The notes beneath the pieces were generated by a model. It did no database searches and was not told the DNA's origin. It was given only the letters and a program-made list of their open reading frames with translations. DNA of 64,000 bases from a virus. The position numbers and the translations under genes were made by a program. Below are positions 552-38,581 of this stretch, piece after piece (within the stretch, counting starts at the first letter, position 1; each line of letters starts with the position of its first letter). The stretch spans positions 37,826 through 101,825 of IMG/VR virus record IMGVR_UViG_3300008050_000025, one strand, 5' to 3'.

Positions 552-1068
552 TAGGTCTGTGCCCTATCTTGTTTTGTTTTTCTTCATCAGTAAAGTCATC
601 TGCTACAGAAGCAGCAACTTGATTAGCTCTCTCTTTTCTATCTCTGGCTTCCTTGTCGGAAACCTTCTTAACTCTGCCTTGGTCTTCCAAGACTTTAAAA
701 TCCATCTCAAACTGAGCGTAAGGAGAGATACCTTTCTTAAACTTCAAGGCCTCCTTTGTATTCTCAATCTCTTTCTCATACCACTCACGGGCGTAACCTT
801 CATCAGTGCATCGGTTATCAGACTCCCTAGTACCACCAATAGTTTTAGTGTACCCTTCACTTACCGTACCTATGAGTTTCGACTTTGAAGCACAGTGAGG
901 ACAGACACCTTCATCTTCTGGATAATCTTTCGGAGGGCTTCCGTTCTCGTCGGAGCAATCCATAATGTAATGCCCATCCTTATTAGTCTCGCTGCACCCG
1001 TACCTCTTCAAAGGGTCTTCACCAAAGCAATAGAATCTAAACTTCTTGTACTTGTCTACGTTTCTCAT
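544..1068 (-). CDS. Hypothetical protein with a possible zinc ribbon
   Basis: 174-aa ORF overlapping both nrdJ (ATGA) and dut. It has an FYC...GC pair and a CPHC motif. Confidence 0.6.
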   Translation of the reverse strand: MRNVDKYKKFRFYCFGEDPLKRYGCSETNKDGHYIMDCSDENGSPPKDYPEDEGVCPHCASKSKLIGTVSEGYTKTIGGTRESDNRCTDEGYAREWYEKEIENTKEALKFKKGISPYAQFEMDFKVLEDQGRVKKVSDKEARDRKERANQVAASVADDFTDEEKQNKIGHRPNG

Positions 1069-3926
1069 ATCTCACAAACCCCTGACTTACATGTGTCAAC
1101 AGATTCTGTCAGTATCTCCAACTTGTTCTCAGCAATAAGTACATCCAGGTCTAGTGTGGAATGGTCAATGGCTTCCAGAGGTTCGTTGCCTCTACTACCA
1201 GCCTTATAAAACGTGAGGCCCTTCATCTCTCCGATTCCTCCAAGCACCATTTCAGATAGCTCCGCAGAATACTGTGCTGTGCTAGGAAGATTACAAGTCT
1301 TAGAGATTGCAGCATCAATCTTTGACTGAATGGCTACTTGCATCTTGATATGCTCCTCTGGTGTTACATCATATGCTCCTACGATATGGCTCACATCTCT
1401 CCCCTCCAAGAACATTTTCTTGAACAACGGGTCGATAACTAAAGCCTCATTATACACATCCTCAGTTCCTGTCTTCCACCTTCGCTTATACACAGGGGAG
1501 AAGATTGGTTCGATGCCTGTGGAAACTCCCACCACCATTGCCACTGTGCCTGTTGGAGCTACTGTCAACAATGAAGCATTGCGAAGACCGTTCTTCTTAA
1601 TGTCTGACCTGATACGTGCAGGAAGAGTTTTCATAAACTGCTCATCCTTTAGCTTTCTCCAATCATATGCTTCGAAAGAGCCTTTCTCACGGGCAAGATA
1701 CATGGAAGCCTTGTACGCTTCGTTGCGGAAGGTTTCGAATAGCCTCTCTGTAAACTCAATACATGACTCGGAACCATACCTGTACCCTGCTTTGATTAGG
1801 AACGTGGCAAAGCCTAGAACTCCTAGACCAATGCGTCGGCTCCTATGACCTACCTCTCTGCACTCTTCGATAGGGAAGGTGTTTACCTCAAGGATGTCGT
1901 CCAGATATCTCACGCCCAACCTAATTGTACGAGCGATTCTTCTCCAATCAATCACACCCTCATCAGATACCATATTTGCTAGGTTGACATGTCCCAAGCA
2001 ACAGTTACCAAATGCTGGTAGAGGTTGCTCTCCACAATTCTTAACGCAAATCCCAGAAGACTTAACGTACTTCCCGTCACCATGAGAAGTAATAACGTGA
2101 TAGTTATGGTTATCGTCTACCGTAATGTTGTACACATCCTGAGTTCCAACTTCCTCCACACTCACTACTTTATGGTTGCCAATCACCAAACTTTTGAACG
2201 CCGAGAAGGAAGTGAACCTACATTTCCGATTTACAGAAATAGGGAGACCTTTCTTTATAGCGTATCTCTGCCACAACTTCTTAGTGAACTTTCCTTCATT
2301 GGCGAACACTTTTCTACCATGACCTACCAGCTCATCGTTAGAGACATCCTTCCAGCGACCATTATCCTCTCCTGTATGGGTGGCAAAAGAAACCTTCCAT
2401 TCGTCCGTCATCTTATGGTAGGGGTTATCCTTGCCTTTCATCTTTTCTGCATGAAGTTGTCTATGCTCACCATGAGGCATCGCTTGCAAATTATCCATAC
2501 TGTCGTTCAGACTATTACAATCTATATGATGGATAGCAGTTGTCTTCGGGTCAACGTTTATCCCGTTAAACTCCGCCATAACCCTGTATTGCCTACGGTT
2601 TCTCCGAGCACCTCCGGTCATTTTTGCTCCAACATTAGAAATCTGCCGATAACCATTGCTGTTAAAACTATTCCATGGGAAGACACTTTGCCCTTCATGC
2701 AAATCAGAAAGATTTACATATTCCAATTCCTTTGTAAGAATCTTATGGTTAGGGGTCGCAATTAGTACAGAGCCATCATCTAAAGTTAACTTCCATACCT
2801 TACTACCCTGCCCTGTCATACGTGGGTTTCGGCCCATCTTAATCTCTACCTGACCAGTGGTTAGATTAGTAGAATACACGGGAACGTCCTCACCTTTATC
2901 AGCAAGCTCTTTAATACTTACACCATTCCGACCATCAGCAACAGCAATAATGCTGTCTCCTGCAACACACGGGTTAGTGCTATTGAGTGTTTCAAAGTAA
3001 CTTACATTATTGAACTGGTTTGTGTAGTCTAGGTTAAAGATTCCAGGCTCACCGCACTCCACGGCGTTCCTTAGGATTCTGTCCCACAACTCCTTGGCTT
3101 TCAGGGGAACCTTCACAGCCTCAGAGAAGGTGTCTGACGGCGTTAGAAGGTGGAAGGCACTTGCCACACCTAATGCATCCTCTTCGCTCTTAGCGATGAC
3201 CTTGACGTTATCTACGCCCTGTTCTGACTCTCTTCTCACAGAGTACTGGTCATACCTTACGTGTCTACCCCCAAAAGTGAAGTACCAATCCTCGTTGTTC
3301 TCCACAGCTTCCAAGAATCTATCAGATACTCCCACTGAGATATTAAAGTTCGTAAGCTCATGCCTATCCAGCTTAGCATCTAAGAACTCCATAAAGTCTG
3401 GGTGAGATACGTTAAGGATTGCGATGAGGGCGGTTCTTCTACTCTTCCCTGCCTTTACGTGCGACCCAATCTCATTAATCATCTTCATTGTTGAGATAGA
3501 GCCGGGAGCAGAGAACGGAATGTTCTGAATGCTATCCCCTTTGGGTCGGATGTTTGAGTAATTAAACCCAATGCCCCCACCTGAGCAAGCAATCTTGTAC
3601 ATGTCCTGAATCATCTTGCCAATACTGGCTACTGAATCGTCAGGCTCAAGGACATAGCAGTTAAGCATGTTGTAGTTCGGCCTTCCTGCACCAAACAAAA
3701 TACGCCCCCCAGGAACTAGGTCGGCACTATTGATTGCATCGTAGAATTTCTTTTCCCACTTCGGCTGCTCTTTAATGTCTTCTACAACGGATGCTTGCTT
3801 TGCTGCCCTACGGGAAACCTCACTCCAGGTGCTCTCCCCAGGGAAGAAGTACTTGAGCTTAGCTATGTCTTCGTGAATTGTTCCTTCGGGAATCACGTAT
3901 CCCGGTACAGCAGGCCTATTCCCCAT
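1065..3926 (-). CDS. nrdJ: Class II (adenosylcobalamin-dependent) ribonucleotide reductase, intein-containing
   Basis: Motifs PGGRIL, NCYV, GGGIG, RRTA, NISV, EPG, TNP/CGEQ, CCLG, GLGVLG, APTGT, IDAAISKT and a C-terminal CKSGVC. It has FY instead of the class I YY pair, no ATP cone and no adjacent small subunit. Confidence 0.92.
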   Translation of the reverse strand: MGNRPAVPGYVIPEGTIHEDIAKLKYFFPGESTWSEVSRRAAKQASVVEDIKEQPKWEKKFYDAINSADLVPGGRILFGAGRPNYNMLNCYVLEPDDSVASIGKMIQDMYKIACSGGGIGFNYSNIRPKGDSIQNIPFSAPGSISTMKMINEIGSHVKAGKSRRTALIAILNVSHPDFMEFLDAKLDRHELTNFNISVGVSDRFLEAVENNEDWYFTFGGRHVRYDQYSVRRESEQGVDNVKVIAKSEEDALGVASAFHLLTPSDTFSEAVKVPLKAKELWDRILRNAVECGEPGIFNLDYTNQFNNVSYFETLNSTNPCVAGDSIIAVADGRNGVSIKELADKGEDVPVYSTNLTTGQVEIKMGRNPRMTGQGSKVWKLTLDDGSVLIATPNHKILTKELEYVNLSDLHEGQSVFPWNSFNSNGYRQISNVGAKMTGGARRNRRQYRVMAEFNGINVDPKTTAIHHIDCNSLNDSMDNLQAMPHGEHRQLHAEKMKGKDNPYHKMTDEWKVSFATHTGEDNGRWKDVSNDELVGHGRKVFANEGKFTKKLWQRYAIKKGLPISVNRKCRFTSFSAFKSLVIGNHKVVSVEEVGTQDVYNITVDDNHNYHVITSHGDGKYVKSSGICVKNCGEQPLPAFGNCCLGHVNLANMVSDEGVIDWRRIARTIRLGVRYLDDILEVNTFPIEECREVGHRSRRIGLGVLGFATFLIKAGYRYGSESCIEFTERLFETFRNEAYKASMYLAREKGSFEAYDWRKLKDEQFMKTLPARIRSDIKKNGLRNASLLTVAPTGTVAMVVGVSTGIEPIFSPVYKRRWKTGTEDVYNEALVIDPLFKKMFLEGRDVSHIVGAYDVTPEEHIKMQVAIQSKIDAAISKTCNLPSTAQYSAELSEMVLGGIGEMKGLTFYKAGSRGNEPLEAIDHSTLDLDVLIAENKLEILTESVDTCKSGVCEI
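2037..2969 (-). mobile_element. Intein (311 aa) with HNH homing endonuclease, inserted at the RNR catalytic cysteine
   Basis: It splits TNP|CGEQ. Block A is CVAGDS, block B is ATPNHKIL, block F is DVYNITVDDNHNY and the C-terminus is ICVKN|C. An internal HNH motif reads IHHIDCNSLNDSMDNLQAMPHGEHRQLH. Confidence 0.95.
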
Positions 3927-4206
3927 CTCTAATTACAATCTGAATATCCGACTCGTACACAACAACTCTGTCATCTCCTAGCCCACTAATCTCTTGGGCG
4001 GCATGTTGCGCGTAAGCAACCATATCTCCTTCCCGAACTTCGTCAGACACCTTTTGCCCAACACTAATAATCAAACCTCTGTTCAACTTCTTTCCTGTTA
4101 ATGAATCGGGCATAACAATCCCGCTACTTGTCTCAGGGAGTTCATCCCCTACTGTGATGGGTTGGATTAAAACTCTTTCCCCTACCGCTAGTACTTCTAA
4201 TGCCAT
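3916..4206 (-). CDS. groES: Co-chaperonin GroES (Cpn10)
   Basis: 96 aa with the pattern ERVLI...TSSGIVMP...G.IISVG...VREGDMV...ESDI. Confidence 0.9.
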   Translation of the reverse strand: MALEVLAVGERVLIQPITVGDELPETSSGIVMPDSLTGKKLNRGLIISVGQKVSDEVREGDMVAYAQHAAQEISGLGDDRVVVYESDIQIVIRDGE

Positions 4207-4334: not shown

Positions 4335-5951
4335 TTAGTTTGTAACGTGTAGTGAGGTTACACCGCCTTTCTTTACCACTGTGATTTTCTCAGACGTATC
4401 TACCAGCAGTGAAGTTAGGTACTCGTTGTGCGTAATGATGAACAACTTTTTATCAGGAGACTGTGCGCGAACCAAATCGAACAAGCACTGAACACCTTCG
4501 TCATCTAGGGAGTCTGCAATCTCATCAAAGAAGATAATGTTAGACCTTTCCTTTCCAGACAGTGCCAGCAAATCATTCAATGCTAGCATGACAGATAAGG
4601 ATACCCTCTTCTTCTCCCCTCCTGACATCGTACCATAAGAAACCTCACCTCCTTGATTAATAACAGTCTCCTCTAACACATCATTAAACTCAAGAGTAAT
4701 ATTTCCATTAGACATTGTATTCAAGTAATAGTTGACACGATTGTTAAAGAACACAAGGATGTTCCTAATGACATACTTAATCAAGCCATGCTCCGAGAAG
4801 GCATCCTCCCAGAAGCGCATAAGGCTATAATTTCTCTGAGCATTCATCACTGCGTCATTATGAATCTCCGACTGCTTCACATGAGAATTCATATCCTTTG
4901 TGTGCAATTCAATTTCCTTATCAAAGTCCTTAATAGATTGAATGCTTTGAAAGTCATCTGATGAGATTGGTATTGCAGACAGGTCAAGAGTCTCAACCAT
5001 CTTGCTAACCTCTTTCCTAACATCAGGAATTGTAAGTTGCAAGAACTTAATCTCCTTCTCAAGTTTAACGTATCTCTGCTGAACGTATGAAGACCTTTCC
5101 CCACAGTTCTCACAAGCTAAACCTTTCAACTCTTCGAATTCCCCTTTGTATTTTTTCAAAGTGGCCACAGCATTCGAAAGGTTAACTTGCTTCGACCTAA
5201 TCTCAAGGTCAAGTTCATGATTGTCTTTCTCCATCTGCTGAATGTCAGCGAGGGAATACTTCTCAATGAACTCCTTCTTCTCCTTAGTTAGAAGCGCATT
5301 GGCTTCCGCTTTGCTATCCCTAGCTTCACCTATTTTAAGGCTAGCACTATTAGTAGCTTCATACGAAACATCTGCTAACGTCTGAGCTACTTTAGTTTCT
5401 GCTTGAAACTGGGACTTGAGTGCCTTAATTGTGTGCCTGTTCTTAAAGATAGAAGATGCATTAAGGAAGCTCTGGAGAATCTGTCTCTTATCTTCTGGTG
5501 TGGCAGTCAGGAAACTCATCTCATTCTGTTGACCAAATACCATTGAAGCTAGGAACACCTTCTTATTGATGTTTAGATGCTTCTCCAACATGGCCTGGGT
5601 CTCAGCCATGGAGCCGCCAATGTGGTCAGCGCCATTAACGGAAACGTGCAGCTTGTTAGGGCCTTTAGACCTAGAGATTACCGTGTCTCCGTTCACCCAC
5701 AGCTTAACCAAACACTTTCCTTTAGTGCGAGTGTTCTTTAAGGTTTTCTCCGAAGACTTCCGCAAGGTCTTTCCAAACAGTGCGAAGTAAATAGCCTCAA
5801 TCAAAGTGCTCTTGCCAGAGCCATTGGACCCTTTCTTTAAAGTGTCCTCATTGATTCCTTTGATGGATGTAATGTTTCCAAGGGTATCAAAGTTAAGGTA
5901 AATCTTACCAGCCGACAGGAAGTTATTAATCTCAATAGAATTTAGAATCAT
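4335..5951 (-). CDS. Recombination endonuclease ATPase subunit (T4 gp46 / SbcC / Rad50-like)
   Basis: Walker A NGSGKST, Q-loop FGQ, coiled coil with CENC zinc hook, signature MSGGE, Walker B FFDE, and ITH. Confidence 0.95.
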   Translation of the reverse strand: MILNSIEINNFLSAGKIYLNFDTLGNITSIKGINEDTLKKGSNGSGKSTLIEAIYFALFGKTLRKSSEKTLKNTRTKGKCLVKLWVNGDTVISRSKGPNKLHVSVNGADHIGGSMAETQAMLEKHLNINKKVFLASMVFGQQNEMSFLTATPEDKRQILQSFLNASSIFKNRHTIKALKSQFQAETKVAQTLADVSYEATNSASLKIGEARDSKAEANALLTKEKKEFIEKYSLADIQQMEKDNHELDLEIRSKQVNLSNAVATLKKYKGEFEELKGLACENCGERSSYVQQRYVKLEKEIKFLQLTIPDVRKEVSKMVETLDLSAIPISSDDFQSIQSIKDFDKEIELHTKDMNSHVKQSEIHNDAVMNAQRNYSLMRFWEDAFSEHGLIKYVIRNILVFFNNRVNYYLNTMSNGNITLEFNDVLEETVINQGGEVSYGTMSGGEKKRVSLSVMLALNDLLALSGKERSNIIFFDEIADSLDDEGVQCLFDLVRAQSPDKKLFIITHNEYLTSLLVDTSEKITVVKKGGVTSLHVTN

Positions 5952-6964
5952 TGACCTTGGATTAGTTTAAGAGCATCCATAAGCTCAGTCTTATTGAATA
6001 TTGTATCAGTGTCAGTAATGTACTGTTCAATCATTGCATCATCAAAAGCCAAGACAGAGCCTTGCATGTTCCTAGCAACACCTGCCTTTTGAAATACATC
6101 TTCAAACACTACGTCCATGTGGGCCAAGTCGTATCGCTTAGTAATGTCTTCCTTTATCTGCTTCTCAGCAAACGTGTCCAACGTGTCCACCTTAATCCTT
6201 AGGATAGTAAAGAAGTCTTTGAACTTGTGCTTCTTGTCAAGCGCAGCAATCTCATCAAGCTTTCCAACAATATGTTTAATGCCCGTATTGATTTGAGACT
6301 TCACAACCTCTACCTTTCCATCAGAGATAAGCAGTTCATGAATGTACTTAGTGGTATTGGCTTCACCAAAACTAGTGGCGTACTGTGTGCCTAGTACATA
6401 AACGTTCTCACCATACTTGTATGGTTTGTGAATGTGCCCCAAGAGCGTAAGCCTGTCTTCAAAATGATTCTTCCTTACAACAGAGTCATAAGTATAGCCT
6501 TTCCTAACAAGGCTTCCATTGAAACCAAAGTGTCCGAAGATTGGAAGTGGTGCTGTCTTTTTGATGTCTTGAATAATTCTATCCTCATCATCGTAATGAG
6601 GAATGATTGCAAACTCAACCCCACCAATAGCAACTACTTCTGTGTCAGATACAACCTTTACCCTATCTGCTTCAAACAGCGACAAAGATGTGTCAGACGC
6701 GCCATTACGGACGAGAGTGTCGTGATTACCACGGTTAATAATGATTTGCTTTGCTTTGATTCCATCCAACAACTTTTGGAACGCAAGAAGCTCTCTCCCT
6801 TTCGGGTTTCTACTGTGAAAGATGTCTCCATTGATTACAACAGTGTGAGCTAGTTTCCTATTAGCATAATACAAAAGGGTTTCCACTTGCTTGTCAAGGT
6901 ATCCGTAAAGATAGTTTGAACGCAGGTGGAGGTCAGTTAAAACTACTACTCTATGCTGCGACAT
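5948..6964 (-). CDS. Recombination endonuclease nuclease subunit (T4 gp47 / SbcD / Mre11-like)
   Basis: Metallophosphoesterase motifs DLH, GDIF, GNHD, GH and GHIH; adjacent to the Rad50-like gene. Confidence 0.95.
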   Translation of the reverse strand: MSQHRVVVLTDLHLRSNYLYGYLDKQVETLLYYANRKLAHTVVINGDIFHSRNPKGRELLAFQKLLDGIKAKQIIINRGNHDTLVRNGASDTSLSLFEADRVKVVSDTEVVAIGGVEFAIIPHYDDEDRIIQDIKKTAPLPIFGHFGFNGSLVRKGYTYDSVVRKNHFEDRLTLLGHIHKPYKYGENVYVLGTQYATSFGEANTTKYIHELLISDGKVEVVKSQINTGIKHIVGKLDEIAALDKKHKFKDFFTILRIKVDTLDTFAEKQIKEDITKRYDLAHMDVVFEDVFQKAGVARNMQGSVLAFDDAMIEQYITDTDTIFNKTELMDALKLIQGQ

Positions 6965-8582
6965 TTTTGTTATAGTATTCCATAATCTGTTCTTTATTTA
7001 GTACCTTGTAACTGGCATCTTGCTCAACTTCTACGCCACTTCCAAAGGAAACCCCAGCCTCCATGTCTACTTTGAAGGGTACATCAAATGTCCACCCGTA
7101 AAGACCTTTTAGATAACTAAGGTCTGCCATGCAGTAATGCATCAGACTGATTGCCTTATGGTAACTTTCCACAGGAGCTTGAATCTCTAAGGAGTCATGT
7201 ACTGTTGCTACTAGGTCCAATTCGATACCGTGCGTTTGCGACAAAGTGTGAACTCTCCAAATTGAATGAAGCATAAGGTCAGACGCAGAACTCTGAATAA
7301 CAAAGTTTACACCTTGACGTAAAGCTCTCTCTTGGAAAGCTCTCTTAGGGCTATTAACGTTAGGAAGCCTACGACGACGACCGAAGAGACTGGTGGCGTA
7401 ACCTGTTCTCTTAATCTCTGCTCTTGTAGCTTCAATCCACTTTGGAACTCCTGGGAATGCCTTGAAGTACTTACTAAAGATTTCTTTGCAGAACGTCACC
7501 GACTTCTTAATACTAGCAGCAAGCTTGGTAGGTCCACCGCCGTAAACGATAAGGAACGTCACGCTCTTAGAGATTTGTCTCTCCTGAGCAGTAATCTTAT
7601 TGATTGGCTTCTTGAAAATCAGAGAAGCTGTAAACTTGTGCAAGTCTTCCCCAGACTCAAACGCAGCGATTAGGTTCTTGTCTTGAGAGCAGTGAGCTAG
7701 TACCCTAACTTCTGCTGCACTGTAGTCTCCTGAGATGAATACCTTTCCCTTATCAGCACCCATAATACTACGCAAGTTAACGTGCATAGCTTGTGGGTCT
7801 TCATCTTCATCAGGTCTTGGAAGTGTGTGAAAAGATACACCCTTGTTGTACTTCCTGTTAACCATAGAGCCAGCCTTCTTTCCAGGCTCAAGCTTCTTAA
7901 CGTTATAAGACGAGTTAGAAAGTCTTCCTGTCTTGGTTACTGAAAAGTTGTATTGGGAATAAATCCTGCCGTCCTGGTTATACTTAAGAGCCTTAGCCAC
8001 GCCGTAAACATAATCATTCCTCTGCTTAACCCTCTTCTTCCACTCTAAGTAAGTGTCAATGAACTCAGCACCAAGAATTTCCTTAGGCGTAGACTTCGCT
8101 TTTGAATACACATCGTCCCTAATCCTTTTCAAATTCTCTTGGTTAATCTTAGGAAGCTGTGATGCAGCGTTCCACTCTTGAGGGGTTAGCCCAAAACCAG
8201 AATTACCTTTGTCGTCCTCTTCATCTGTAAACAGAATCTCAATAACCCCGTGAGGCTTGTACTCAACATTAGGTAAAGGGTTCTGCCTGTCTAAGATGCC
8301 GCGCAACCTATCAATCTCTTTTGTAAGCTGCTCCTCCAGAACCTTAACGTGGTCAGTGTTAGCCTTGATGCCACGTCGCTCCATATCTCCTACAATAAGG
8401 ATGACTTCGCTGAGAACTTTATCATATGCCTCAGTAACGCCATCGGCTGTCATACCTAATCTAATCTTCTCCTCTAGGTGCAACGTGTAGTTGCAATCCA
8501 TAGCGCAGCCCAAGGCCAGCTTCTCCATCGGGACATTGGCCCAATCAGTTTTGGAGGCATCTTCTCCTTTAATGTTTAACAT
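6951..8582 (-). CDS. polA: Family A DNA polymerase, C-terminal part (ExoIII motif plus polymerase domain)
   Basis: TKTGRLS, motif A DYSAAEVR, DLH, motif B RQISKSVTFLIVYG, FGRRRR, NFVIQSSASD and motif C VHDS. The N-terminal LGCAMDC sits where ExoIII is expected. Confidence 0.95.
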   Translation of the reverse strand: MLNIKGEDASKTDWANVPMEKLALGCAMDCNYTLHLEEKIRLGMTADGVTEAYDKVLSEVILIVGDMERRGIKANTDHVKVLEEQLTKEIDRLRGILDRQNPLPNVEYKPHGVIEILFTDEEDDKGNSGFGLTPQEWNAASQLPKINQENLKRIRDDVYSKAKSTPKEILGAEFIDTYLEWKKRVKQRNDYVYGVAKALKYNQDGRIYSQYNFSVTKTGRLSNSSYNVKKLEPGKKAGSMVNRKYNKGVSFHTLPRPDEDEDPQAMHVNLRSIMGADKGKVFISGDYSAAEVRVLAHCSQDKNLIAAFESGEDLHKFTASLIFKKPINKITAQERQISKSVTFLIVYGGGPTKLAASIKKSVTFCKEIFSKYFKAFPGVPKWIEATRAEIKRTGYATSLFGRRRRLPNVNSPKRAFQERALRQGVNFVIQSSASDLMLHSIWRVHTLSQTHGIELDLVATVHDSLEIQAPVESYHKAISLMHYCMADLSYLKGLYGWTFDVPFKVDMEAGVSFGSGVEVEQDASYKVLNKEQIMEYYNKNVAA

Positions 8583-8583
8583 A

Positions 8584-9570
8584 TTACCAGTCTTTCAGTT
8601 GTTCAGGGAAGTATTCTTTCACTAGGCTCATTAAAGAGTGAGACCTGTTCTCATCTACCAGTGAGTGCATGAATTGAATGCAGTGTACATTTTGAAAAGG
8701 CTTTGACCCACGCTTCCTTAGAAACTTTTGGTCAAACTTAGAATTTGCATATATCTTCATTACATTTGGGTTCGCATGTAGTTCAGAGGACAGTTCATAA
8801 ATCATATCAAGCTCTTCATCTGTGAACTTGGATTCGAAGTGGTGCATGGGTATGATGAACGCGCTGTCCTCTTCGTATGAACCTCCAATACAAGTAATGA
8901 CATCCTTATTGAAGTCAAGTCCTGTAGTCTCAAGGTCCATACCAATCTTCTCAGCCAAGTTAGCCTTACGGAACTCTTCTCGTACAAGTTCCATAGTATC
9001 ACACAGTACTACACCAGCCTCTTTGAACTTGTCAACCTTGAGGATGTTCCTGCTATAAGAGTTAGTTAAGTCCTCTACAAAAACATTCCTAACCATAGGC
9101 TCTAGGTAAACTGTCTCTGGCGCAAAGGTTGGGAACACTACAATCTGTTTGCCAGTTGTCTCACTCTCAATAATGAACTCACAGCCACGCCTATTAAGAA
9201 GGCCTCTCTGCTTGAGCACTACCTTCAAAGCAATATCCCCCATGAGGATTACCAAGTCTGGTTGGATTTCTTCCAACTCTTTCATGATAATCTCTCTGTG
9301 GAACTCAAACTCAGCCAACTCCAGGTCATCAAACTCTTTGTTGTAGTCTTTGATTGCTGGAATGAACTGGTAGTTGCACATAGGACTTTCCGCAATGATA
9401 CCTTTCACTAAGTACTCAGCGTCTTCTTCCATGTCGGCAACGTGCCCACCGTTTTTAGTGAGGGAGGGGGTCACGAAGACAATCTTCTCCGTTCCAACAT
9501 CCTCCTGATAGTTGTTGTAGGTCTTAGGGTCTTTTAACTTCCCCAAAGATTCTTCTAGTTTCTTGGACAT
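8584..9570 (-). CDS. Family A DNA polymerase, N-terminal part: degenerate UDG-like domain plus 3'-5' exonuclease ExoI/ExoII
   Basis: UDG family-4-like segment (EIQPDLVILMGDIA...RRG...VFPTFAP), then ExoI MDLETTGL, ExoII NSKFDQKFL and LVDENRSHSL. The stop lies 1 nt before the ATG of the polymerase ORF. Confidence 0.85.
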   Translation of the reverse strand: MSKKLEESLGKLKDPKTYNNYQEDVGTEKIVFVTPSLTKNGGHVADMEEDAEYLVKGIIAESPMCNYQFIPAIKDYNKEFDDLELAEFEFHREIIMKELEEIQPDLVILMGDIALKVVLKQRGLLNRRGCEFIIESETTGKQIVVFPTFAPETVYLEPMVRNVFVEDLTNSYSRNILKVDKFKEAGVVLCDTMELVREEFRKANLAEKIGMDLETTGLDFNKDVITCIGGSYEEDSAFIIPMHHFESKFTDEELDMIYELSSELHANPNVMKIYANSKFDQKFLRKRGSKPFQNVHCIQFMHSLVDENRSHSLMSLVKEYFPEQLKDW

Positions 9571-10222: not shown

Positions 10223-10296
10223 TATTCTTTTTCAAGCTCGGCAAGTGACTGTACCGCGCAGTTAAACACATCGCGGGAAGGGGGCGTGTTACTCAT
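10222..10296 (-). CDS. 24-aa mini-ORF (MSNTPPSRDVFNCAVQSLAELEKE), not in the ORF track
   Basis: Fills the gap exactly: its ATG overlaps the thioredoxin TGA (ATGA) and its TAA overlaps the next ATG (TAATG). Confidence 0.5.
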   Translation of the reverse strand: MSNTPPSRDVFNCAVQSLAELEKE

Positions 10297-10601
10297 TTCG
10301 TAAAGTAATTGTAGAGAGAAGGGTACTCAACCACAACCCTCAAACCTTTACCTTCTGTAGTAAGTAGTGCTGGTGCAGATGTAATGTTAAACGTGCCAAA
10401 TGCCTCAGGCGTATTCCAACTATCAATCTTGTACATTGGAACCTCTGGGTGATTGGTGGCCCATTGCTCGGCCAACTTCTCCATCTTACCACTCCACTTG
10501 CACCAAGGGGACACGTACAAAATAGAGAACACGTCATTATGCCTACGCTTCAACACTTCATTAATGTCAGCGTGGGTCTTTAGGTGTGTAATATTACTCA
10601 T
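10293..10601 (-). CDS. Thioredoxin-like protein (WCKWS, CxxS variant)
   Basis: YVSPWCKWS, KID and NITSAPAL cis-Pro loop. The likely start MSNITH at 10601 overlaps the upstream stop. Confidence 0.8.
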   Translation of the reverse strand: MSNITHLKTHADINEVLKRRHNDVFSILYVSPWCKWSGKMEKLAEQWATNHPEVPMYKIDSWNTPEAFGTFNITSAPALLTTEGKGLRVVVEYPSLYNYFTK

Positions 10602-11034
10602 CGTCGTCAGACTTATTGACCCTGATAAAAGCTTCTTTCTGTTCTTCCTGGTCAAGGGCTGCTTGCTCAGCTTCTTTAGCCTCGCGCTCCTTGCCCATCT
10701 CTTCCATCTTCTCAAGCTCTTCCAAGCTAGACGCAATCTTTGAGATGTAAGTTGCCACGCCAGCCATCATAATGACTGCGGCAATCTCATCATCAGACTG
10801 AATGCCAGCACCTTTAAATACAGATGCGACTTTTTCAAATTGCTCGGTCTGTTCCTGAGTAAGTTTAATGTATAGTTTCATACGTCTATCTTTTTTGATT
10901 TTAACTTTAGAACCATGCATAGTGAAGTCGGCATCTTCTAAGGCCTCAAGCATACCCGTCTTCTCCACAATCTGTTCTTGGACTGGGTTTAGCTCCACCT
11001 CTTCCGACTTACTTTCTTCCTGAATATTCTGCAT
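10594..11034 (-). CDS. Hypothetical protein
   Basis: 146-aa ORF, first gene of the minus-strand block, divergent from the resolvase. Confidence 0.7.
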   Translation of the reverse strand: MQNIQEESKSEEVELNPVQEQIVEKTGMLEALEDADFTMHGSKVKIKKDRRMKLYIKLTQEQTEQFEKVASVFKGAGIQSDDEIAAVIMMAGVATYISKIASSLEELEKMEEMGKEREAKEAEQAALDQEEQKEAFIRVNKSDDDE

Positions 11035-37200: not shown

Positions 37201-38581
37201 TTTGATAATGCTCCCCATTAATCATAATGAACTTGAACTCTCTGTCAAGCTCTTCTAGGATAGCATCAACACAGAACCTAATGTTCTTGTCATGGTCTGT
37301 GGGTGAAAGGTTGAATGTTAGGGAAGTGTTCTCTCTGCTCTCAGAGATGAACGCTGCCAAAGTATTAAAGTCCTGGCATACAGGAGCCTCTGTTTTAAGG
37401 GCGTAGTACAGCAGGAAAGGAAGATATGATTCATACGCTTCGTGGATATCCGAAGATGCTTCGAAGGTTGTAATCTCCCGTGGGAACACGTACTGGATAG
37501 CGTCGAATAGACTTTGCCTTGTCCCCTTGGCTTTATAGATGTATACCGCTTGCCTAAGCTGTGCTCTCCATGAGTTAACGTCACCGCCAACAAACTTCCA
37601 TCCGATAAGTCCTGCTAGGTAATCCAGGAACTCAGGGGGGCATTCGTTAATGTTCATTAGGTCGCCAATCTCTTCAATCAAAGTATCCATGTCATAGAAT
37701 GAATACGAGATAGCTTTCAAGAACGTCATAAGAGGCCCAGCCGAATCGCTCTTGGTAGGAAGCAACCCAGACACATCAATCATATCATGGGAATCTTTAA
37801 TGAAAGATGACTGCCTCTCTTTGGCGTTATACCAAACGTCAATAAGAGTTTTTAGGTTGTCAAGGTTTTGTGTTCCTGACAAATACTTGTCTGTGCTGTT
37901 TACGCTGCTTGTTGTTTGGAACTCGTAAGGGAGGTATCGGTTAAGAGAGGTTGCCTCCTCACGTCCTGTCCAAGTGTAATCGAACAAGCATTGCATAGCA
38001 GTGCTCTCCGTGAACGGCTTACCATAATATACACTGCTGACAATGTAGGGTGTCAGAGTAGATGATAGGGATGTGCTTGTTCCTGCAACTCCGGATGAGT
38101 TAAGGAAGTACATCATTCCAAGAGATGCCACTAGGTCATCGTGTACTTCTCCCGCATCGGATACAGTTGTGTACGGAGTATTTGTGGCAGAGGTTACAAA
38201 GGATGCAGCAGGTGTGTTACAAGCAATATCGGGCTGCACAGTCTCAGTTAGGAACAACGAGAACTCGCTAGGGGATTTGAAGTCGGAGAACGTCTTCCCA
38301 TACCTGTCCAACACATGCTCCTTGAAAACCTGAGGAGTTACGTTTGTGTTCTTGTTTGAGGGAATGGTATATGTCTTAACCTCTGCTTCTGTCAAACCAC
38401 TGACATCAAAGATAAAAGAGTTTTCGTGAGCGAATAGGAGAGTCTTCCCTAGGACCTTGTAGGTGATATCCTCTACAGTGCCATTTTTATAATCCTCATC
38501 CACGTAGATTGCAGGAACCAAGTCCTTAATCTTTTCTACGTAGTTGTACTTATATGAATTCCTATTTCCCTTGTATACCAT
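34262..38581 (-). CDS. Baseplate wedge protein (P2 gpI / T4 gp7-like) with appended carbohydrate-binding-like modules
   Basis: ECPPEFLDYLAGLIGW...WRAQLRQAVYIYKAKGT motif, a C-terminal NLVFNQYFEDGLTDW CBM-like start, and position after the gp6-like gene. Confidence 0.75.
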   Translation of the reverse strand: MVYKGNRNSYKYNYVEKIKDLVPAIYVDEDYKNGTVEDITYKVLGKTLLFAHENSFIFDVSGLTEAEVKTYTIPSNKNTNVTPQVFKEHVLDRYGKTFSDFKSPSEFSLFLTETVQPDIACNTPAASFVTSATNTPYTTVSDAGEVHDDLVASLGMMYFLNSSGVAGTSTSLSSTLTPYIVSSVYYGKPFTESTAMQCLFDYTWTGREEATSLNRYLPYEFQTTSSVNSTDKYLSGTQNLDNLKTLIDVWYNAKERQSSFIKDSHDMIDVSGLLPTKSDSAGPLMTFLKAISYSFYDMDTLIEEIGDLMNINECPPEFLDYLAGLIGWKFVGGDVNSWRAQLRQAVYIYKAKGTRQSLFDAIQYVFPREITTFEASSDIHEAYESYLPFLLYYALKTEAPVCQDFNTLAAFISESRENTSLTFNLSPTDHDKNIRFCVDAILEELDREFKFIMINGEHYQTLPNGDGYKHRGDYTVAVPPWERDRFYATSQITKSMLDRLREILSECNEGSRYGISDEFLDDLISFIETSTGIGNTAETFYFGNNTGVKFFTSSLEIAANMDSVIEGGVPEQVEALDYWNSKSSHIFVAVDVGDIDESNGQDAMTPTVITNISRTLHEFTPFHVTPRMFISIDVSDPMTDMVDSVCLSMVYHADDANTTVLDSHSVSGWLGTSGAGDYFSSLDADLLKLGRVLPAPSDSFWTVFGGGLDRDTSRRRDFKYEIPTEGYARTGRSQPKSTYFYGSSTSGLETTKEVIYKGYNFSGQHFMSPESITYSSVYDASNSPVVDDNEIVYSAPSGNVIGVPVSSTMNLRGVEDLGCDSIVPTRHISDGTIFKALLNRILRLGSKDSTLLDFSHENMQGVELGSGIHDVWTDYRRDFDMNLDGSGFYILDHVFGEGLYNASMLVSGIAGTTETASVLAYTDGSNTPLSSVEFSYIIGTDKIKGKAYRTQDDQLVLVDEKGLVWDKGWNTFPHELDNGNLTNDIQLSGIQFSFHPESDTIAIVNYPHIVDKGCGQRRFIDIHGVSFFQGRHGSNATMRYPLIKNKNLVFNQYFEDGLTDWSSSGADVLTFSSTSDVVSDDLNLSGGFYGVQFSGVQYLSSTANEFIRTESVSSLVAGDMYTLSYDVSAEGTNGSIGYTLLNQTAKKYYDSQTLTWEDTVTVNTPAFQADSDWRTISDSVVMDEEFNVDDAYWLTFGLDSASTGGAAEEVNLRNPNMFRTLSNTLFPDENYNLDLTFDSSGHGESNKVAVRIVTGNKRYQGRTDMSDMFVYDFTRNRWQLEGEALSDSYEVELPDGATSVSIPFHTDNLKGPLNPYTRSLYTGRYESVHDDDTYYYIEITPVMRPHTHPSDLNKPSVRVDSVSLTNTGYGDVPEEYTREEVKSILLFLDTLVSTLHSRDSTITALLGLGSDGGSRHVYLERYGGTFAEGDTAGVTYYTI

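Follow-up and report, generated by a model that had tools for sequence, protein, structure and literature searches.

A phage family A DNA polymerase divided between two genes inside its proofreading exonuclease domain

Introduction

The window analyzed here is a stretch of 64,000 nucleotides (nt) from an IMG/VR virus record (IMGVR_UViG_3300008050_000025, positions 37,826 to 101,825). On its minus strand, a family A DNA polymerase (PolA) occurs in two genes. Gene 1 ends in ...EQLKDW-TAA after the ExoI and ExoII motifs of the 3'-5' exonuclease domain, and the ATG of gene 2 follows after one intervening base. In PF01612 exonucleases, the three Exo motifs are borne by one polypeptide, but here a stop codon stands between ExoII and ExoIII. 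Are these two genes real, and how would one proofreading site be built from them? We consider it very probable that they are real and separately translated, that they derive from one ancient fission of a replicase with a uracil-DNA glycosylase (UDG)-like domain and a family A polymerase, and that the heterodimer of their products is the only polymerase of the phage.

An earlier note, made from the sequence alone, had proposed a two-gene PolA with a composite proofreading site, by translational coupling rather than decay, and had left +1 recoding open. The two-gene reading is supported by the conserved cut, its single origin, the partner genes in relatives, an assembly free of indels and the model of the complex. 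The other two points fared differently, as described below.

Results

Conservation and origin of the cut

The 328-residue product of gene 1 was searched against 1.84 billion representative proteins. The best matches (about 38) all have 320–350 residues and align to their own last residues; fused proteins of 800–930 residues match only at weaker scores. In an alignment of 41 gene 1-type proteins (A1), 24%–46% identical to that of the window, all 41 rows stop at the same place (...YFPxE-LExx-stop). The split position is thus conserved among homologous gene pairs: 61 split protein clusters, with less than 50% mutual identity, terminate exactly at the cut between ExoII and ExoIII. The earlier note had named continuous genes in all close relatives as a result that would speak against it; the closest relatives are instead split at the same residue.

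In a maximum-likelihood tree of 61 split and 67 fused sequences, computed on the shared N-region, the split/fused label changes once (branch SH-aLRT 93). As, in addition, all other PolAs are single chains, one ancient fission is the simplest reading of the tree. The fused homologues align straight over the cut (...YFPxFxGYE / DEVxKY-KWxxVP...Y-x3-D, with the slash at the cut). The split forms have only about five extra N-terminal residues (MLNIK or MLTVT), and nothing is lost. A split intein with trans-splicing was considered and rejected: both ends are in register with the fused homologues, and about five extra residues leave no space for intein halves. The profile of aligned gene 2-type proteins (A2) matches Klenow with E=1e-67 from the ExoIII region onward. 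In this profile alignment, the segment FNQIALEEAGRYAAED follows the start of gene 2 by about a dozen residues, which places the cut about 25 residues upstream of the ExoIII Tyr.

Some relatives have other lengths. Four proteins of 392–443 residues (P0061, P0094, P0119, P0131) and five of 580–651 residues (P0102, P0103, P0118, P0120, P0124) run beyond the ExoII/ExoIII point and end elsewhere in the polymerase. Such proteins may come from genes cut off at contig ends, or they may mark additional, independent sites of fission.

The partner gene and the genes between the halves

Scanning IMG/VR with a profile gave 80 loci. Wherever the flank beyond gene 1 is longer than about 1 kb, a polymerase piece is present downstream on the same strand (64 of 64 loci); the 16 loci without such a piece end less than 720 nt past gene 1. 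In 11 loci, the two halves abut, with TAATG, TAA-A-ATG, TAG-A-ATG, TAA-C-ATG, TAAAAATG or TAA-AAC-ATG at the junction. These abutting junctions cover all three relative frames, the in-frame one included. In about 40 loci, 0.2–3.7 kb of co-directional genes lie between the halves. The usual inserts are genes for glutamine-synthetase (GS)-like (30 loci) and saccharopine-dehydrogenase-like (six loci) proteins and ThyX (three loci). The gap is a hotspot for cargo genes, which also include one for an unknown protein of 659 residues (examples of cargo at L004:4939-5919, L026:4933-5988, L049:4944-8670 and L060:574-1254). A GS-like cargo gene was sought in the genome of the window phage itself and was not found.

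Could ribosomes still join the two frames? A programmed +1 frameshift or a stop bypass at AAA-GAC-TGG-TAA-T would yield, at least partly, a fused polymerase of about 870 residues. The frame of gene 2 is indeed +1 relative to gene 1 and open over the four codons before the ATG, where it is closed by TGA, and a +1 slip at the AAA-G step is conceivable. However, no slippery site is conserved, the frame relation between the two open reading frames is not fixed, and no stimulatory element is seen; relatives have a –1 overlap or spacers of 1, 2 or 3 nt, and most have the gap of 0.2–3.7 kb. Besides, M1 and L2 of the gene 2 protein are conserved as a true start. We regard such recoding as very improbable for the window. 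For the family, frameshifting, readthrough and trans-splicing are ruled out as the mechanism, because all relative frames and up to 3.7 kb of intervening genes occur in relatives. The +1 recoding that had been left open is, in this sense, effectively excluded.

Genes in pieces by homing endonucleases, as in Aeh1 nrdA, were considered as well and rejected. The gap in the window is 1 nt, and no homing endonuclease (HNH, GIY-YIG or LAGLIDADG) was found among the 10 inserts of relatives that were scanned.

In 12 loci (L062-L080) and in L081, the gene 2 piece is cut again about 158 residues in, which gives a three-gene polymerase (for example, L062:4945-5421 and 5418-6533). These loci share with the window the ExoII/ExoIII cut and the Gly at ExoIII; the window polymerase has the first cut only. 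They appear to form a sister clade or a subclade of the window's lineage. A deoxynucleoside monophosphate (dNMP) kinase-like gene occupies the second gap in L064, L067, L073 and L074. In L075 (6508-6786), the piece after the gap stops at 92 residues, by an additional cut or a defect.

Reality of the junction and selection on both genes

The window belongs to a 101.8-kb virus record (92% complete), which is a metagenome assembly. The stretch is present in Logan contigs of several marine runs, and contigs from three studies cross positions 7800–9400 without a gap; the coverage of run X5 leaves out the junction bins. Two of the contigs are identical to the window and may be the source of the IMG/VR record. 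The third, from an independent seawater study of 2025, covers 7800–9400 in one piece and is 98.3% identical, with 27 substitutions and no indel. The 25 differences listed for it fall into 24 codons across both genes, with 21 synonymous and three non-synonymous. Since this contig is diverged, indel-free and mostly synonymous in its changes, it reproduces the junction in a second natural strain, and its codon pattern places both genes under purifying selection.

These contigs bear on two simple ways to explain an interrupted gene. In one, a 1-nt sequencing or assembly indel interrupts a gene that is truly continuous. The frames differ by +1, the genes are one base apart and the record is assembled from a metagenome, as such an error would have it, but the independent contig has 27 substitutions and no indel, the 61 divergent clusters share the stop residue, and relatives have other genes between the halves. 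The chance of such an artefact is very slight; the indel restoring one reading frame, named in the earlier note as a possible undoing, appears at the junction in none of the three assemblies. In the other, the gene was broken recently and is decaying. Nothing more than the interruption itself speaks for it; every catalytic motif is intact, the changes between strains number 21 synonymous to three non-synonymous, no other polymerase is present in the genome, and the cut is ancient and shared on the tree. A pseudogene is just as hard to credit.

Domains on the two chains

The open reading frames, motif coordinates (Table 1) and Pfam matches agree with the earlier note on the content of both genes and on their ends. 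Residues 191–321 of gene 1 match DNA_pol_A_exo1 (E=1e-13), and residues 146–514 of gene 2 match DNA_pol_A (E=1.1e-73). The polymerase profile PHROG 17 is matched consecutively, at positions 554–785 by gene 1 and 797–1250 by gene 2. The family A motifs (PF00476) are all there in gene 2, with motif A as D..E, motif B as R-x3-K-x3-F-x3-YG and motif C as HD, and D286/E291, R335/K339/F343/Y347/G348 and H462/D463 are invariant in A2. The carboxylates of ExoI (D-x-E) and ExoII (N-x2-3-(F/Y)-D) of PF01612 are D212, E214 and D280 of gene 1. An intein, an intron or an endonuclease gene has no room at the junction because a single base separates the two genes, and the note was right that no remnant of one is present.

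Table 1. Positions of the two polymerase genes, their junction and their motifs in the window
Feature	Position	Strand	Description
Gene 1, N subunit	8584..9570	-	328 aa; degenerate UDG-like domain and first part of the 3'-5' exonuclease domain (ExoI, ExoII)
Gene 2, C subunit	6951..8582	-	543 aa; ExoIII helix and complete polymerase domain (thumb, palm, fingers)
Junction	8580..8586	-	Gene 1 TAA 8586-8584, single T 8583, gene 2 ATG 8582-8580
ExoI motif DLE (D212, E214)	8929..8937	-	Gene 1
ExoII motif NSKFD (D280)	8731..8745	-	Gene 1
ExoIII position GCAMD (Gly25 for usual Tyr; catalytic Asp29 kept)	8496..8510	-	Gene 2
Polymerase motif A DYSAAEVR	7704..7727	-	Gene 2
Polymerase motif B RQISKSVTFLIVYG	7539..7580	-	Gene 2
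Polymerase motif C VHDS	7191..7202	-	Gene 2
Family-4-UDG-like domain, degenerate	9046..9489	-	Gene 1 aa ~28-175; Foldseek; no CxGC, KCP, CR or HP motifs

The proofreading site

All four catalytic carboxylates are kept, three on the gene 1 product (D212, E214, D280) and one on the gene 2 product (D29). D212 and E214 are invariant in the 61 split and 67 fused clusters, D280 is present in 60 of the 61 split ones, and D29 is invariant in A2. In ExoIII (Y-x3-D in PF01612), the Asp is thus kept (D29) and the Tyr is replaced by Gly (G25). This Gly in LGCAMD, already pointed out in the earlier note, is real and belongs to the whole split clade: it is invariant in 18 of 18 aligned two-piece relatives and occurs also in the three-piece ones. 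The fused relatives keep Y-x3-D in the same columns. A replacement for the Tyr was sought; H244 is conserved in the fused forms as well as in the split ones and is therefore not specific to the split. From Klenow mutants, it is the four carboxylates, as metal ligands, that are essential, and the share of the Tyr is smaller. By this analogy, proofreading without the ExoIII Tyr is plausible but unproven.

The UDG-like domain and the predicted complex

The AlphaFold2 model of gene 1 has a mean pLDDT of 89. Its Foldseek matches are the UDG-PolA of phage phiLo (9qhs, 306 columns), family 4 UDGs (first half) and the Klenow exonuclease (second half); those of the UDG-like domain are 4zby, 1l9g and UdgX. 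Pfam gives a weak UDG match at residues 87–154 (E=2e-4, below the cut-off). A family-4-UDG fold thus precedes the exonuclease domain, as in the UDG-PolA group. Family 4 UDGs usually have four Fe-S cysteines and a motif-B His-Pro. Most of the split clade keeps the four Cys (CxGC, KCP, CR) and HP, and A1 shows the window and its nearest relatives without them, so that neither the Fe-S cysteines nor the His-Pro of an active family 4 enzyme are present in the window. With the cysteines and HP gone from the window and its closest relatives, the domain is most likely structural in the window phage. The distribution suggests a secondary loss of the Fe-S cluster within the split clade.

The complex of the two products, whose modeling the earlier note had advised, was predicted with an ipSAE of 0.86 in three of three runs, versus 0.00 for the best of three controls. 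When the predictor was calibrated, this mark was reached by 58 of 80 solved complexes and by two of 110 mismatched pairs. The runs have at least 76% contact agreement and a partner pLDDT of at least 81. In the model, residues 14–69 of the C subunit contact residues 185–324 of the N subunit, and D29 of the former adjoins D212 of the latter. The prediction passes its controls, though it may recall the solved single-chain PolA fold; it speaks for likeness to that architecture, not for binding.

Discussion

A proposed heterodimer with a shared exonuclease site

In the arrangement we propose, the proofreading domain is interrupted at a surface link that joins its ExoII and ExoIII elements. The 328-residue product would bring the UDG-like domain and three carboxylates (D212, E214, D280); the 543-residue product would contribute the whole polymerase domain and, on the ExoIII helix, the fourth carboxylate (D29). 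These chains would most likely assemble non-covalently into a heterodimer folded as in the single-chain relatives, with an exonuclease that may be active despite the missing Tyr. The abutting genes are probably co-transcribed, and translation of gene 2 may restart at the stop of gene 1, termination-reinitiation at TAA-T-ATG being a reasonable proposal. As to coupling rather than decay, decay is excluded and coupling is plausible here; the family as a whole cannot depend on coupling, since cargo genes separate the halves in most relatives.

Several points weigh against this proposal. No RNA run is present among the listed holders of the stretch, and we infer that the proteins are produced and that they associate. 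The start of gene 2 is without a Shine-Dalgarno sequence, as are most other genes of the window. The junction was checked on Logan contigs only. And without the Tyr of DEDDy enzymes in the whole clade, the exonuclease may be less active or have another mode of action.

The last point is also what a looser arrangement would explain, in which no stable joint enzyme forms, the 543-residue chain is a proofreading-deficient polymerase and the 328-residue chain an independent or vestigial accessory. The loss of the Tyr across the clade, the degenerate UDG-like domain of the window phage and the genes between the halves in many relatives, by which equal expression is not enforced, would fit. Yet the four carboxylates are conserved on both chains over a deep clade, gene 1 is accompanied by gene 2 in 64 of 64 loci, and both are under purifying selection. 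Moreover, the ExoIII helix belongs to the core of the DEDD fold, which is incomplete in either chain alone. Separate chains are improbable on these grounds, and we retain the heterodimer.

Could the cut and the Tyr-to-Gly change be more than a neutral fission? A detachable proofreading/UDG-like subunit might set the fidelity, or the tolerance of unusual bases, by its amount or occupancy, and the nested GS-like, saccharopine-dehydrogenase-like, ThyX and dNMP kinase-like genes could reflect a link to DNA precursors or base modification. We offer this as a speculation, unlikely on balance.

Comparison with known split polymerases

The UDG-PolAs of phages (SPO1/SP-10-like, N4-like and SP15/phiLo-like) have the same order of domains, family-4-UDG-like, 3'-5' exonuclease and polymerase (PMC10201439, PMC13697223, PDB 9qhs). 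These single-chain enzymes are the nearest relatives in sequence (SP-10, 27% by tblastn), and the phiLo polymerase is the best fold match of the gene 1 product. Like the window, the N4-type enzymes have a UDG-like domain without catalytic and cluster residues. The single-chain UDG-PolAs differ from the window in having one polypeptide and the ExoIII Tyr, where the window has the ExoII/ExoIII cut and Gly. Megablast against phages and a single-sequence locus scan gave no match, and no cultured phage exceeded about 27% identity to either piece.

Split PolAs have precedent, and the heterodimeric reading of the earlier note, though supported, has to be refined in this respect. In Czernecki et al. 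2023, the polymerase of the S-SBP1-like T7-like cyanopodoviruses is reported as the first split PolA (PMC10201439). As in the window, that polymerase is in two adjacent genes produced by fission, with no intein, and an AlphaFold complex superposes on uninterrupted relatives (PMC10201439). However, it belongs to a T7-like subfamily without UDG domain, is cut at the exonuclease/polymerase boundary, and stems from a recent event with genes overlapping via a +1 frameshift (PMC10201439); in the window lineage, the cut is inside the exonuclease domain, old, widespread and often cargo-bearing. In the cultured LUZ24-like phages (Bruynoghevirus), an exonuclease and a polymerase, long annotated as "DNA polymerase part I" and "part II", are encoded apart, with small genes filling the roughly 2.3 kb between them. 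LUZ24 gp25 has ExoI, ExoII and ExoIII (YCLQD) on one chain, with a cut at the domain boundary, unlike the window; it lacks a UDG-like domain, and profile comparison gave no significant similarity to the window's family. The S-SBP1- and LUZ24-like exonuclease subunit carries ExoI to ExoIII, whereas in the window ExoIII is on the polymerase chain.

Among family B polymerases (PolB), split forms are described in T4-related phages (gp43A/gp43B), RM378 and Methanothermobacter (PMC3061061). These are replicative, with T4-type halves 2 bp to 3 kb apart, and form non-covalent complexes (PMC3061061); the window phage is without PolB. The genome of RM378 was searched for a PolA by profile and with Pfam, and none was found; its split polymerase is a PolB in that account (PMC3061061).

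No description of a split UDG-PolA, or of a cut inside a PolA exonuclease domain, was found in the open-access literature. Naturally split polymerases are rare but already known; what is new here is the cut position, the PolA subfamily, the old and widespread lineage and the composite proofreading site. The locus would represent a natural replicative PolA in which two polypeptides share the proofreading site, one supplying three carboxylates and its partner the remaining one. The two-chain arrangement is stable over deep divergence in widespread marine T4-like phages that use PolA instead of PolB, and it extends natural split PolAs beyond the exonuclease/polymerase boundary cuts of T7-like and LUZ24-like phages. 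Polymerase engineering could use it as a natural scaffold in two pieces, and it raises a testable question, proofreading by a DEDD site without Tyr. It is also a warning for annotation pipelines, where such genes are called truncated or "exonuclease only".

Genomic setting

T4-like phages normally use a PolB. In the window phage, the major capsid protein resembles gp23, with about 31% identity to proteins of T4-like cyanophages, and genes for SbcCD (gp46/47-like), sheath, portal and terminase are present. A PolB was not found in the 92%-complete genome, and the split PolA is the only PolA. With these T4-like genes and no other polymerase in the genome, the phage is a marine myovirus, T4-like but distant, and the split PolA is its replicase. 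Many genes of the window abut, overlap, or start at or inside the preceding stop, and most are without a Shine-Dalgarno sequence. The TAA-T-ATG junction is ordinary operon packing, and the pattern of starts suggests a host with weak Shine-Dalgarno dependence.

The large subunit of ribonucleotide reductase (RNR; 1065-3926, minus strand, 953 residues) contains an intein with an HNH endonuclease (about nt 2097-2945; Intein_splicing at residues 328-610, HNH_3 at residues 450-489). The genome therefore hosts a mobile element, though not at the polymerase cut. Genes for a Cpn10/GroES co-chaperonin and a dUTPase (3916-4206 and 81-551, both minus strand) flank the RNR/SbcCD/polymerase block. The processivity factor of T7 PolA is thioredoxin; a weakly thioredoxin-like open reading frame (10293-10736, minus strand; Pfam E=2.4e-4, below the cut-off) is found about 700 nt upstream of the polymerase operon.

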